Below, in pieces: positions 6,148 through 10,110 of a stretch of 64,000 nucleotides of DNA. The stretch lies in contig OZ243927.1 of NCBI GenBank assembly GCA_965213925.1, positions 3,840,001-3,904,000 of the forward strand, written 5' to 3'. The notes under the pieces were generated by a model, which did no database searches, was not told where the DNA came from, and saw only the letters and a list, made by a program, of their open reading frames with translations. Origin of the DNA: Trueperaceae bacterium (lineage in GTDB: Bacteria; Deinococcota; Deinococci; Deinococcales; Trueperaceae). Made by a program: the position numbers and the translations under genes. The number at the start of each line of letters is the position of its first letter. Position 1 is the first letter of the stretch.

Positions 6148-7179
6148 CTAAAGCTCCTTCCCTACCGCCGCCACGACCCCGCGAAGCTGACCCATCAACC
6201 CCGCAAACTCCGCGCCATTAAGCTGCTGCGCCGCGTCGGACTTGGCGTTTTCGGGCTCGGGGTGGACTTCGACGATGAGACCGTCCGCGCCCGCCGCAGC
6301 GCCCGCAAGCGCCAAAGAGGTCACGAGGCTGCGCCGCCCCGCCGCGTGGCTCGGGTCGACCCAGACGGGCAGGTGCGTCAGCTCTTTGAGGACGGGCACG
6401 GCGGACACGTCCAGGGTAAAGCGCGTGGAGGTCTCGAAGGTGCGGATGCCGCGCTCGCACAAGACCACGTTGGGGTTGCCCTGCGAGAGGATGTATTCGG
6501 CGGCTTGCAGAAACTCGCTGATGCTCGTCGAGATGCCACGCTTAAAGAGCACGGGCTTGCCCGACTTGCCGACCTCGGCTAAAAGCGCGAAGTTCTGCGA
6601 GTTGCGCGCGCCGAGCTGAAACATGTCGGCGGTTTCCCCGACGACCTCGACCAGCTCGGGCGCGGTGACTTCCGTGACGATGGGCATCCCGGTCTCTTGA
6701 CGCGCTTGCGCCAAAATCTCCAAACCCGCTTTGCCCAGCCCTTGGAAGGAGTAGGGGCTCGTCCTCGGTTTGAACGCGCCGCCGCGCAGGACGCGCGCGC
6801 CGTGCTCCTTGGCGATGTGCGCCGCGCTCACCGTTTGCTCGACGTTTTCGACGCCGCACGGTCCCGCCGCGACGGTGAAGCGTCCGTTGCCCGTCGCCAC
6901 GCCACCTTTCGCTGCCTCGCCGATCATCACCTCGGAGTCGTCGTGGCGAAATTCGCGGCTGGCGAGCTTGAAGGGTTTAGTGATGGCTAAAACATTGTCG
7001 ACGTGGTTGAACCCGCGCAGATGCTCGCGAATATCCGTGGTCGGGGCAGGACCGATCGCGCCAATCAGCGTGCGCGACTCGCCCTGGCTGATGTGCGGGG
7101 TAAAGCCCAAGCTGCTGACCTCTTCTAAGATTCGCTCGATCGCCGTTTGCGGGGCGTTTTTCTCCATGACAATAACCAT
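6148..7179 (-). CDS. aroF: DAHP synthase (class I-beta, N-terminal regulatory domain)
   Basis: AGPCGVE, RGGAFKPRTSPYSFQGLG, GARNSQNF, CERGIRTFE, DPSH. Confidence 0.95.
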   Translation of the reverse strand: MVIVMEKNAPQTAIERILEEVSSLGFTPHISQGESRTLIGAIGPAPTTDIREHLRGFNHVDNVLAITKPFKLASREFRHDDSEVMIGEAAKGGVATGNGRFTVAAGPCGVENVEQTVSAAHIAKEHGARVLRGGAFKPRTSPYSFQGLGKAGLEILAQARQETGMPIVTEVTAPELVEVVGETADMFQLGARNSQNFALLAEVGKSGKPVLFKRGISTSISEFLQAAEYILSQGNPNVVLCERGIRTFETSTRFTLDVSAVPVLKELTHLPVWVDPSHAAGRRSLVTSLALAGAAAGADGLIVEVHPEPENAKSDAAQQLNGAEFAGLMGQLRGVVAAVGKEL

Positions 7180-7291
7180 GCTGAACTCCTGTACTCGTCG
7201 TAGGTGAGTAGCCCGCGCGAGGCTCGAGGTCCTTCACGAACCTTCCTTGCGCCGACCTACTCAATGTTGATGGATAGCTGCAGGAGACCTC

Positions 7292-7360
7292 TTAAAGATA
7301 ATCCGCCGAGAGGTCATCCGCGCATTGCCGAAAGCTCATATAACCATAGCCATCGTCCAC
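7292..7360 (-). CDS. Putative aroF leader peptide (MDDGYGYMSFRQCADDLSADYL)
   Basis: GGAGG SD 7 nt before GTG; 3 Tyr + 1 Phe codons; lies between promoter and aroF. Confidence 0.6.
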   Translation of the reverse strand: MDDGYGYMSFRQCADDLSADYL

Positions 7361-7392
7361 AGAACCACCTCCCTTGTGCGTAAGCATGAGAA

Positions 7393-7420
7393 ACTCTATC
7401 AGATTTTCGGCGTGTGTCAA
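7393..7420 (-). promoter_or_regulatory. sigma70-type promoter for aroF-tyrA
   Basis: TTGACA-N16-TAGAGT with TGn extension. Confidence 0.65.
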
Positions 7421-7629
7421 GCTGGTAAAGATGAACGCTGCGCGCGGTCTCAGCAAAGGGTTAAAAAACTATCATGAGCCGTGCGTAAACTTTGGGGTGG
7501 ATGGTCTTCTTTTGGTCTACATTTTTTGGTGTATGTCGGCGTAGCTGCGTCACATCTAAGGCGTAGCCATGTCAGACGCCTTTCGTACCCGCTAGGATGA
7601 CCACAAACCTCACGATGACGGGAGACACA

Positions 7630-8895
7630 ATGAGGTCATACATAACGAACCGGAGCGCCGCGGCGCTCCTTCTCTGCTTGGGGCTCACCGCGCTACTCAG
7701 CGCGTGCTCGGACGTAACGGACGAGGGCACGAAACCGAACGACGCTTCCTTGACCGGGCAGACGGTGGACGAGAGGTTGCTCGAGCTTAACCGCGACACT
7801 GAAGGCTTCGGCGGCTTGTTCTATGGTGAGGACGGCACGCTCAACGTTTATATGAAGCGCGGCGAAATCAGGGCGCTGTCGCGAGAGACGCTGCGGACCA
7901 CCTTCGCGGACTATTTGGCGCGTCCCATACGCGGCACGCTGAGCGTGCAAAAGAAGCGTGAGATAAACGTTTTAGAAGGGGATTACAGCTTTAGAGAGTT
8001 GCTCGAGTGGCGCTCGGAGGTTGACGCGCTGGGGCTCGAAGGTGTCGTTCTCACGGACGCGGACGAGCGCCTCAACCGCGTGCGCGTCGGCGTGACGGGC
8101 GCAGCAGTGAAGGCTGCGCTCGAAGCGCGATTAGGCGCGCTCGGCATCCCTAAAAAAGCGCTCGTGATCGAGAAAGTCGCACCGTTTAAGACGGCGGCGA
8201 GCTTGCGCGGCGACGTTCGTCCGCTCGTGGGCGGCGTCGAGATAGGCTTCAGCGACTTCGTCTGCACGCTCGGGTTCAACGCCTCGCGCCGCGGCGAGCG
8301 CGGCTTCGTCACCAACTCGCACTGCACGGACGAGCAAGGGGGGGTCGAAGGGACGCGCTACACGCAAGGGAGCGGCAGGGTCGGCACGGAACGCGCTGAC
8401 CCTAAGTACGGTGACATCAAGAACTGCCCACCGGGGCGCGACTGCCGCCTGAGCGACAGCGCCTTCGTAAAGGTGAGCGGGGCGAAACGCACGGTCGGCG
8501 GCGTCGCGCGCACGTCCAGTCAGAACGACTTTTCAAACCCCGACCTGAGGATAGCCGGGCAGCTCGAGATCGCGGGCGAAGAAGCGACCTCGTTTAGCGG
8601 CGAAGAACTCGACAAGATAGGACGCTCGACGGGCTGGACCTACGGCGACGTCGAAGAGACCTGCGTCACCGTCGACGTGTATGACGAAAACGGCGACACC
8701 GGGCTCACGCTGCTCTGCCAAAACATCATCGAGTCGGGTATTAAAAGCGGCGACAGCGGCGCGCCTGTGTTTCGTTTTGCAGGCGGGGGCAAGGTCTACT
8801 TGCGCGGTATCCTTTGGGGCGGTGACGGCGCGGCGTTCGTCTTTAGCCCCATCGACCAGGTTCGCAAGGAGCTGAGGGTCTCTGATACGTATTGA
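7630..8895 (+). CDS. Lipoprotein S1 (chymotrypsin-like / alpha-lytic-type) serine protease with pro-domain
   Basis: Lipobox LSAC; CTLGF, TNSHC (His), DSA (Asp), GDSG (Ser); GGAG RBS before ATG 7630. Confidence 0.85.
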   Translation: MRSYITNRSAAALLLCLGLTALLSACSDVTDEGTKPNDASLTGQTVDERLLELNRDTEGFGGLFYGEDGTLNVYMKRGEIRALSRETLRTTFADYLARPIRGTLSVQKKREINVLEGDYSFRELLEWRSEVDALGLEGVVLTDADERLNRVRVGVTGAAVKAALEARLGALGIPKKALVIEKVAPFKTAASLRGDVRPLVGGVEIGFSDFVCTLGFNASRRGERGFVTNSHCTDEQGGVEGTRYTQGSGRVGTERADPKYGDIKNCPPGRDCRLSDSAFVKVSGAKRTVGGVARTSSQNDFSNPDLRIAGQLEIAGEEATSFSGEELDKIGRSTGWTYGDVEETCVTVDVYDENGDTGLTLLCQNIIESGIKSGDSGAPVFRFAGGGKVYLRGILWGGDGAAFVFSPIDQVRKELRVSDTY

Positions 8896-8979: not shown

Positions 8980-10110
8980 ATACCAACCTGAAAGAATCAT
9001 GTCACATTCAATAGCTCACCGAGTTGCGAGATACCGAAGTGCCACCAAGGGAAGTTGGTGAGGAGTTCTAAACGTTCCTTGTCAGTAGTGAATTGCATGA
9101 GCACCTGCGTCAGTGCCTCGTGCAAAGTGTCAATGGTATCGAAACATCGGTTGGCGAGTAGGCGGCGGAATTCTAAGAACCAGCGCTCGACGGGATTGAG
9201 TTCGGGGCTAAAAGGAGGTAGAGCTACTGGGATGATGTTGTCAGGCACATCGAGGTCATGTTTAATGTGCGCAGGAGCGTTGTCCCTTAGTAAGAGGATC
9301 AAGTCATCGGGGTAGGTTTGGCTGAGTTCGCCCAAGAAGACTTCGTAACAGTCGCCATCAAGTCTTGGGAGATAAAGACTGCAACTTTCGCCGGTCATAG
9401 GCTCAACAGCGGTGTAAAACCAGCTCCATTCGTACTTGCGCTGCACAGTGCAAGGGGGTCTCACCCCACGAGGACAGTAGCGACGTTTGTGCCAGTTGAT
9501 CAATCCGAAGCGGGCCTCGTCCATTGCAAAAACCCTGACGTGGGCGTACGCCTCCTTATGCTTGGGAAGGTGCGCGTTTAGCCGCTCAGCGAAGTTTTTT
9601 TGAACTCGTTTTGAACTAAAGTATCCGCCTTCTCGTGGCGGGGTCTGCCTACTTTGGCTTTGATCTGGTGACGCTTGAAGAGTTTGAGCAGACTGCTATC
9701 GTCGCAGTACACGACACCGTGCTCAGCCACTAGCTCACGCGCTTGCGGATAGGTCGCTATATCTCCTTGGCGCAAAGCTTCATCAAGCGCTTGCCACGCC
9801 TTAGCCGTCATCCGTTCAGGCGCACCTGTTGACTGACCGGGTTTCTCCAGCAGTGCGTCTAGCCCTGAGTCGTAGTAGCGCCGCAGCCACCTTTGGCAGT
9901 GGCGGCGGCTGTAGTGGACCTTCTGCGCCGCTCGCTCAACGCTCGTGACTTCTTCTGTTTTGAGGATGCGCAGCAGTCTCAAGCGGGTCCCAATCACGCT
10001 GTTGCGGTGCTTCGCCTCCAGCGCCTTTAGCTCAGCTTCGCTCTCTTTGATTAGTGTCTCGTAATCCCGTCGCATCTCGCTATTGTGTCACAGTTTATTC
10101 AGGTTGGTAT
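8980..10110 (-). mobile_element. IS630-family insertion sequence
   Basis: Terminal IRs ATACCAACCTGAA / TTCAGGTTGGTAT (imperfect to ~27 bp); flanking AAGTA direct repeat; two-ORF transposase. Confidence 0.92.
8997..10075 (-). CDS. IS630 transposase (HTH orfA 9578-10075 + DDE orfB, joined by -1 frameshift)
   Basis: DEARFG, DNAPAH, PPFSPELNPVE; slippery AAAAAAAC at 9594-9601 joins frames without a stop. Confidence 0.9.

Follow-up and report, generated by a model that had tools for sequence, protein, structure and literature searches.

A conserved tyrosine-codon leader upstream of aroF-tyrA in a Trueperaceae bacterium, probably a ribosome-mediated attenuator

Introduction

The classical leader-peptide transcription attenuators are trpL and pheL of Escherichia coli, and in other phyla, tRNA charging is sensed upstream of aroF or tyrS by the T-box riboswitch. 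Surveys in which the Gelfand and Lyubetsky groups compared attenuators across genomes might include leaders from Thermus or Oceanithermus. The trp attenuation scheme, with its competing pairings, is summarized in PMC4007540, and Table S9 of the same source contains 14 putative leaderless leaders of Deinococcus deserti, including Deide_18471 (DAHP synthase) and Deide_00051 (tyrS). An attenuator tested by mutation is Ms5788A of Mycobacterium smegmatis, a polycysteine leaderless small ORF (bioRxiv 10.1101/834739). In Acholeplasma, the uORF candidate uORFC-13-1 precedes aroF (PMC8632094), whereas attenuation of the E. coli aroF-tyrA operon is a hypothesis dating from 1980 (cited in PMC8632094 and PMC2659441). 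Judging from these sources, tyrosine-codon-counting leader attenuators are poorly documented, those in print being the D. deserti predictions and the 1980 E. coli hypothesis. Here, we analyse a leader upstream of aroF-tyrA for which the original prediction had proposed Tyr/Phe sensing and attenuation at the level of translation.

The leader and the aroF-tyrA operon

The operon lies within a 64,000-nt stretch of DNA from a Trueperaceae bacterium (contig OZ243927.1), hereafter called the window (Table 1). A contig of a public run, possibly from the source sample, is identical to the window over positions 6900-7600. The promoter, the Shine-Dalgarno (SD) element, the 22-codon ORF with Tyr5, Tyr7, Phe10 and Tyr21, and the stems of the original prediction are all present where it had placed them, as is the exact complementarity between CTCCTG and the aroF SD; its statement that no U-tailed terminator separates the leader ORF from aroF also proved correct. 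On the minus strand, the -35 box TTGACA occupies positions 7420-7415 and is separated by 16 nt from the -10 box TAGAGT at 7398-7393; this is the only promoter-like site in the region 7000-7700, for which shuffles predict 0.4. The SD of the leader, AAGGGAGG (7375-7368), is followed after 7 nt by the GTG at 7360, and the ORF closes with a TAA stop codon (7294-7292). Overlooked in the original prediction was an in-frame ATG at 7387, which opens a 31-codon ORF (7387-7292, minus strand). The arms of the two stems, read on the minus strand, are TGAGTAG (7263-7257) and CTACTCA (7211-7205), and GACCTCT (7315-7309) and AGAGGTC (7292-7286).

Structurally, the leader is unexceptional: the leader stretch folded alone is no more stable than its shuffles (z -0.17), and Rfam yielded no family for the window at E up to 1, apart from one chance snoRNA match. 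The case made below is therefore built on comparison and conservation. Searches of Pfam and NCBIfam with the 22- and 31-residue leader peptides, which as short queries are insensitive, returned no family at E up to 1. A T-box riboswitch was considered and rejected, given that no match was obtained in the window (E up to 1) or, at gathering score, in nine homologous loci. As for the neighbourhood, a divergent 432-codon ORF (7597-8895, plus strand) has a lipoprotein-like N-terminus and is protease-like by eye, with no match in NCBIfam; behind it, two ORFs (8997-10075, minus strand) resemble, again by eye, a split IS630-type transposase.

Table 1. Features of the leader and the downstream operon, in window coordinates.
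Feature	Position	Strand	Basis
aroF-tyrA promoter, sigma70-type, TTGACA-16-TAGAGT, extended TG	7393..7420	-	matching -10 box in 63 of 67 homologous leaders
Candidate leaderless start codon ATG	7385..7387	-	5 nt past the -10 box; frame shared with GTG
Internal SD of the leader; also region 1, able to pair with region 2	7367..7375	-	Gly codons kept; pairing predicted
SD-led leader ORF, 22 codons, peptide (M)DDGYGYMSFRQCADDLSADYL	7292..7360	-	translation of the window ORF
Sensor codons Tyr5 (TAT)-Gly6-Tyr7 (TAT)	7340..7348	-	Tyr/TAT conservation among 67 leaders
Predicted anti-RBS strand	7332..7357	-	7357-7345 against aroF 7180-7168; 7338-7332 against the 3' side of the SD, 7189-7182
Region 2, 3' half of the leader ORF	7308..7321	-	predicted to pair with region 3 or region 1
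Region 3, holding CTCCTG (7286-7281)	7280..7293	-	predicted partner region 2 or, after a ribosome has moved into region 2, the aroF SD
Spacer stem-loop, bringing the leader and the aroF start together	7205..7263	-	probability about 0.9 in most folded states
aroF Shine-Dalgarno CAGGAG	7186..7191	-	sequence
aroF, 3-deoxy-7-phosphoheptulonate synthase, 343 aa	6148..7179	-	PRK08673, 457 bits, above cut-off
tyrA, prephenate dehydrogenase, 362 aa	4958..6046	-	best match PRK06545, 4e-82, under cut-offs

Conservation of the leader ORF and its tyrosine codons

Across 364 genomes of the phylum, 147 encode an AroF of this type at E up to 1e-100, and the upstream DNA was read for 119 of these: 66 from family f1, to which the window belongs, 20 from f3 and 33 from f4. 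Excluded from this set were 23 f4 genomes, four partial f1 matches and one unpublished genome (G329). The last is included as one genome in several totals, among them the 147 given here and those of the looser-pattern scan and the rho count below, but none of our claims depends on it. We infer that f1 corresponds to Trueperaceae, f3 to the Oceanithermus group, f4 to the Thermus/Meiothermus group and f2 to the Deinococcus group. The strict search pattern, RTG-GAN-GAY-GGN-T, has the D-G positions built in and admits either Tyr or Phe at the first sensor codon. It was found upstream of aroF in 48 of the 66 f1, 19 of the 20 f3 and none of the 33 f4 genomes. The uORF of the original prediction thus recurs before aroF-tyrA in two families (f1 and f3), with the motif GGx[A][V/M][D/E]DGY-G-Y; of the 86 relatives read in these families, 67 carry it, and being related they are not independent samples.

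Codon 5 is Tyr in 66 of the 67 leaders and is spelled TAT in 62 of them, whereas TAT accounts for 24% of the Tyr codons in this genome and for 256 of 1666 (about 15%) in twenty 20-kb control regions. A second Tyr, likewise not prescribed by the search pattern, is located at codon 7 in 50 leaders and at codon 8 in 16. By contrast, Phe occurs once within residues 1-7 of the 67 leaders (26/1043 at later positions), and a Tyr among the final four codons is restricted to the window leader. Of the proposed Tyr/Phe sensing, the Tyr half is accordingly retained and the Phe half abandoned; Phe and Trp were both rejected as the sensed amino acid because their codons are not conserved among the 67 leaders. 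When [DE][DE]G[YF] was searched for with no start codon specified, the codon preceding the 68 matches was GTG in 45 and ATG in 23, a restriction expected of a start codon rather than of a Val residue. Codons 2-3 show synonymous and D/E variation.

SD-shaped Gly codons at positions -4/-3 (GGA, GGG or GGT, followed by GGT or GGG), which the search pattern does not demand, are present in 67 of 67 leaders, with GGT at -3 in 62. The invariant Gly-Gly, along with the D/E-D-G that precedes Tyr despite synonymous variation and the duplication of EDGY in a derived leader (L242), could alternatively denote a sequence-specific arrest peptide, of which TnaC is an example, with GGxx[V/M][D/E]DG-Y sensing free tyrosine or a pathway metabolite in the ribosome tunnel. 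However, the shape of the Gly codons is that of an SD, one leader (L009) keeps the SD without the glycines, the D-G positions belonged to the search pattern, and twelve variants retain just a Tyr-containing ORF. Furthermore, stalling is predicted to turn the genes on, which would fit shortage of tyrosine rather than excess. An arrest peptide appears very unlikely to us.

The 19 aroF genes lacking the strict motif include 12 preceded by a leaderless ORF with Tyr, two by a short ORF without Tyr and five by none. Several departures from the common form were observed. Five leaderless leaders (L010, L071, L076, L080 and L084) carry a single TAT in an R-R-Y context and resemble the D. deserti tyrS leader (PMC4007540, Table S9). 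In genus g12 (L036, L049, L050, L053, L061, L065 and L067), a subgroup has a longer leader with a conserved T-Y-[IT]-[RW]-P-A-V-A-R tail, which places a Tyr some ten codons ahead of the stop; several members have a decayed DDGY motif and internal SD, as if the sensor had moved. In genus g37 (L052, L055, L070, L075, L077 and L083) and in L073, the leader has been lost, with either a -10 box kept without a Tyr ORF or aroF directly following the upstream gene. A different leader ORF, rich in Phe and Tyr and in some cases Trp, precedes aroF in 33 of 33 f4 loci (L012, L017-L019 and L102-L130); one f4 subgroup has a GC hairpin followed by a U-tract, that is, a classical terminator, and the other a GC hairpin beside the SD with a weak U-tract. 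Our literature searches found no description of these f4 leaders.

Two in-frame candidate start codons

An ATG behind the -10 box is found in 63 of the 67 leaders, in frame with the internal start in 62 of these. The spacing between the two starts in the 63 leaders is 30 nt in 45, 45 nt in 11 and 33 nt in four, whereas spacings of 27, 51 and 28 nt were seen in one leader each; tyrS-linked copies (see below) add 24 and 39 nt. Counted by hand rather than derived from a tree, eight of nine lineage-level length changes are multiples of three (P about 0.001 at a chance of one third each). The upstream ATG is missing in four leaders and out of frame in one, a form seen again in metagenome contigs, and several other leaders have lost the internal SD while keeping the leaderless ORF. 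The survival of leaders with just one start implies that either start can apparently serve alone. In this genome, the ATG codons of long ORFs peak 5-7 nt past a -10-like hexamer (43, 77 and 45 versus 5-24 for the remaining spacings); the 5-nt gap of the window leader is the shortest among the 63 yet falls within this peak. The leaderless -10-to-start spacing published for the phylum is 6-7 bp (PMC12340547). Judging from the conservation of the two candidate starts and the Tyr codons, the leader ORF is real.

Genes preceded by the leader

A scan for the exact pattern in one genome per species, covering 185,579 species, gave 51 matches, 48 of which are within 450 nt upstream of aroF and three upstream of tyrS. 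With a looser pattern, 80 of the 364 phylum genomes matched, never twice in a genome, and the reversed control pattern matched once. None of the 125 f2 genomes contained the looser pattern, and two f4 matches to it were treated as chance since they do not adjoin aroF, tyrA or tyrS. The reading of regions upstream of tyrS covered 29 genomes out of the 123 in the families that gave a tyrS match, together with pattern-picked loci, and revealed seven clear copies of the leader and one derived copy. The latter (L242) carries the duplicated EDGY unit and five TAT codons, with a hairpin and a U-rich stretch downstream. The genomes with tyrS-linked copies lack an aroF match at E up to 1e-100, and tyrA is present elsewhere in all five of those tested. 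Among 40 distinct metagenome matches, 36 precede aroF, three are cut off by contig ends and one (L285) precedes a start that by eye is tyrS-like; none of the 40 lies before a recognisably unrelated gene. No leader was seen before the tyrS or the second DAHP synthase gene of this genome.

That tyrosine is the amino acid sensed is supported most strongly by the occurrence of the leader before two tyrosine genes that are unrelated to each other. By this comparative evidence, the leader is a tyrosine element, Phe10 and Tyr21 of the window leader not being conserved, and it very probably functions as a translated sensor of Tyr-tRNA. Neither that exclusive linkage nor the fixation of Tyr as the rare TAT codon nor the conserved frame would be expected in the absence of conditional control, i.e. 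if the leader were constitutive and merely loaded ribosomes, or if a conserved RNA- or protein-binding site had an incidental frame. Such explanations would nevertheless accord with the family-wide structural switch not being found (see below), and a role as translation antennas has been suggested for leader genes (PMC4833913); the gaps between leader stop and gene start are, however, mostly 30-244 nt here, as opposed to the 10-11 nt peak given in that source. Overall, we regard the lack of conditional control as highly improbable.

Predicted folding of the leader transcript

To follow a ribosome along the leader in silico, the RNA 7387-7145 was folded with the footprint forced open codon by codon. 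In the free RNA, the prediction joins the upstream part of the anti-RBS strand to the aroF start at 13 of 13 positions, counting G-U (Table 1), and sequesters CTCCTG in a hairpin of regions 2 and 3 (2:3). The probability of the anti-RBS helix, 0.97-0.99 in the free RNA, falls to 0 when a ribosome occupies Tyr5 or Tyr7. The predicted cost of opening the aroF start, 15.6 kcal/mol in the naked RNA, decreases to 9.3 at Tyr5 and 7.8 at Tyr7 but is 13.7-19.8 at codons 11-22, including 16.1 at Tyr21, and 13.6 at the stop codon. The ranking of these costs was the same whichever of four footprints, three interval definitions and two transcript 5' ends was used. Among dinucleotide-shuffled leaders, a switch as large was obtained in 1/150 and a start as closed in 7/150. 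Pairing between regions 1 and 2 (1:2) is predicted in some ribosome-position states.

Region 2 includes a 15-nt block that is identical in the single same-genus homologue, in which regions 2, 3 and 4 are kept but the spacer has diverged; the sequence of the spacer stem-loop is poorly kept even within the genus. In this homologue, the opening cost is predicted to drop from 10.1 kcal/mol in the naked RNA to 6.0 kcal/mol at Tyr5, whereas under a Tyr7 stall with a short footprint the SD would stay paired; the anti-SD logic of region 3 is predicted to be alike. The aroF gene of a same-genus locus (L014, genome G002) has two frame changes, which are probably assembly indels.

The reading that we favour, with a probability of about 0.62, is that the Tyr-codon leader before aroF-tyrA is a ribosome-mediated attenuator in which a stall at Tyr5/Tyr7 would uncover the aroF start. 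The transcript would begin at or beside the AUG at 7387, and ribosomes would enter either leaderless or at the SD-led GUG, in one frame. When tyrosine is plentiful, ribosomes would pass quickly and the segment with the Tyr codons would pair with the aroF start and SD, shutting off translation, while the CUCCUG strand would act as a second lock on aroF whenever a ribosome occupies the 3' half of the leader. When tyrosine is short, a ribosome waiting at UAU would cover the sensor segment, region 2 would hold CUCCUG, and aroF-tyrA would be translated. Provided that the leader is a Tyr-tRNA sensor, occlusion of the RBS is the probable output in this genome. Translational attenuation as originally proposed is thus retained in so far as folding predicts control at the aroF RBS, but the predicted route differs, leading through Tyr5/Tyr7 and another anti-RBS strand.

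In the original prediction, a Tyr stall masked CTCCTG and thereby freed aroF. A sensor of this kind, with a Tyr/Phe stall directly covering CUCCUG as the sole anti-SD, draws on a six-base complement that is real and of which the genus mate retains a 10-base version. The pairing is present in the minimum-energy fold of 7385-7170, and its predicted probability is 0.75-0.99 with a ribosome at codons 11-20; it is, however, 0.00 in the naked RNA and 0.01 at Tyr5. Phe10 is not conserved. Tyr5 and Tyr7 are 55-60 nt away from CUCCUG, and only Tyr21 is close by. With a stall there, the cost is 14.8-16.6 kcal/mol depending on the footprint (interval -18..+10), and Tyr21 was rejected as a sensor codon given that it is found in the window leader alone among the 67 and that aroF stays closed in the model. 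We therefore consider the route via CUCCUG alone to be extremely improbable.

Regulatory outputs in relatives

The attenuator favoured for the window does not extend to a single family-wide RBS switch, which was rejected because most f1 and f3 leaders show none in folding. Stalling at Tyr makes the aroF start easier to open by >1 kcal/mol in 11 of 48 f1 and 2 of 19 f3 leaders (median 0), and with the whole 5' part covered, 18 of the 48 f1 leaders are more open and nine less open, compared to six and five, respectively, of the 19 f3 leaders. In 46/48 f1 but 0/19 f3 leaders, complementarity between the sensor segment and the aroF start extends to 11 or more of the 13 positions, and in 30 of the 48 f1 leaders it exceeds that of 95% of 88 control starts. 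The Tyr-codon:aroF-start helix is dominant in 7/48 f1 free RNAs and in 19/48 in some state. Covariation in this helix was looked for and discarded, the 12 C-A mismatches among 48 matching independence; the 18 f1 aroF genes without the strict motif open with the same codons as the motif-bearing ones. The free folds of 45 of the 67 leaders show region 1 paired to the 3' half of the ORF, but sequence-specific 1:2 pairing was likewise discarded, as it surpasses composition-matched shuffles in only four of 48 f1 leaders and one of 19 f3 leaders. A further candidate, a small hairpin in which GCC-RTG at the internal start would pair with codon 3, was dropped because it displays no clean covariation. 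In two loci (L016 and L101), the leader stop lies at +16 and -3, meeting or overlapping the aroF start, which suggests translational coupling as an additional output.

The spacers between leader and aroF point to a further possibility. They contain more C than G in 46 of 48 f1 leaders and in all 17 f3 leaders that have a spacer (63/65), with a median C skew of 0.217 (n=65) versus 0.000 in 58 control upstream regions, although the latter contain untranscribed promoter DNA. T runs are scarce (8/67 aroF leaders), and rho was found in 117 of 128 family genomes, in 108 above cut-off. The same tyrosine sensor might hence be read out by Rho-dependent termination, with C-rich RNA past the Tyr codons loading Rho unless a ribosome or structure hides it. 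For the window, this output seems unlikely: the only exceptions to C-richness are the window spacer (28 C, 29 G) and that of its genus mate (15 C, 19 G), and the window spacer is predicted to form a stable stem-loop. In addition, C-richness could mirror pairing with the G-rich region 1, and a ribosome at codons 5-7 would leave the spacer mostly bare, which gives the wrong sign unless structure intervenes. For many relatives, Rho is the more likely output, and it could add polarity in the window. Loss of Rho in the genus was rejected as a cause of the RBS output, since both genus mates carry intact rho. The rho gene of this genome (G000:C1:1304255-1305493, outside the window) is broken into four pieces and shows three frame changes, of which one falls at an A run; with rho intact in both genus mates, the splitting is likely due to assembly indels.

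U-tailed hairpins follow four tyrS-linked copies (L207, L225, L237 and L285). For L237 and L285, the terminator is predicted to fall to 0.18 or less under a Tyr5 stall, whereas a Tyr7 stall switches it fully only if the 5' cover is extended over the SD; elongating ribosomes have been reported to have longer 5' footprints over SD sites (PMC3673220). The terminator of L285 is predicted to be low also with a ribosome at the stop codon, and L207 and L225 are predicted to switch weakly, if at all. We consider it likely that the sensor is a portable module with a lineage-dependent output, namely, RBS occlusion here, an intrinsic terminator in some tyrS copies and possibly Rho in most others.

A more elaborate version of the sensor would involve two ribosomes. 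A leaderless ribosome entering at the 5' AUG would melt the hairpin that hides the internal SD, and that SD would double as attenuator region 1, kept off region 2 either by the 16S anti-SD of the ribosome at the fifth codon or by a second ribosome queued 30 nt behind; the same cassette would have been connected to RBS occlusion, an intrinsic terminator and a Rho site as its three outputs, and would have moved between aroF-tyrA and tyrS. The 30-nt spacing of the starts in 45 of 63 leaders, the fixed SD-to-Tyr distance and the need for SD cover under the Tyr7 stall in L237 and L285 are consistent with this scheme, which we put forward tentatively and consider rather doubtful as a whole.

Comparison with known systems

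The original prediction knew of no such control in Deinococcota. This holds for the present sequence family, but not for the general idea, which is already in print for the phylum with the D. deserti leaders of DAHP synthase and tyrS (PMC4007540, Table S9). As far as consulted, PMC2659441, PMC11109978 and PMC4833913 do not describe the window leader, and literature searches for a DDGY-type leader motif, in which coverage of subscription papers was thin, found no description. The family is a well-bounded case open to testing, and its natural variants number more than 70, among them lineages with one of the two starts retained. It would allow one to ask whether ribosomes that enter leaderless and ribosomes that enter at an SD act together on the same regulatory ORF, whether a switch can be operated by rRNA-mRNA pairing and in what way a sensor becomes connected to other outputs and genes.

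With trpL and pheL, the leader shares cognate codons and, by prediction, competing 1:2, 2:3 and 3:4 pairings, and L237 and L285 fit that scheme down to the U-tailed hairpin; the window leader differs in having no U-tailed terminator, just two sensor codons and two candidate starts. The Acholeplasma uORF, from another phylum, has Phe codons and an intrinsic terminator, and its description in PMC8632094 includes no shared motif. The f4 leaders occupy the same operon position, with a 5'-proximal ATG in 33/33, but encode different peptides (FGY, FYYP and YFYW types) followed by a GC hairpin, and they have no internal DDGY motif.

The D. deserti leaders and the present one, all predicted, belong to the same phylum and have in common a short ORF at the mRNA's 5' end, aromatic codons and the same target classes (PMC4007540, Table S9). 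By eye, there is no sequence likeness between them, and Deide_18471 has Phe, Tyr and Trp codons, whereas leaders of the window type are Tyr-only. Moreover, the 14 D. deserti leaders are, as presented in PMC4007540, all leaderless, none of them SD-led, and are proposed to act on transcription. Mechanistically, the best match and the closest tested mechanism appears to be Ms5788A, in which, as predicted here, the ORF is leaderless, RNA containing the sensor codons pairs with a downstream RBS, and a stalled ribosome blocks the duplex (bioRxiv 10.1101/834739). Whereas Ms5788A has eight consecutive C-terminal Cys codons, the window leader has two mid-ORF Tyr codons, an internal SD with a second start and an extra 2:3 hairpin.
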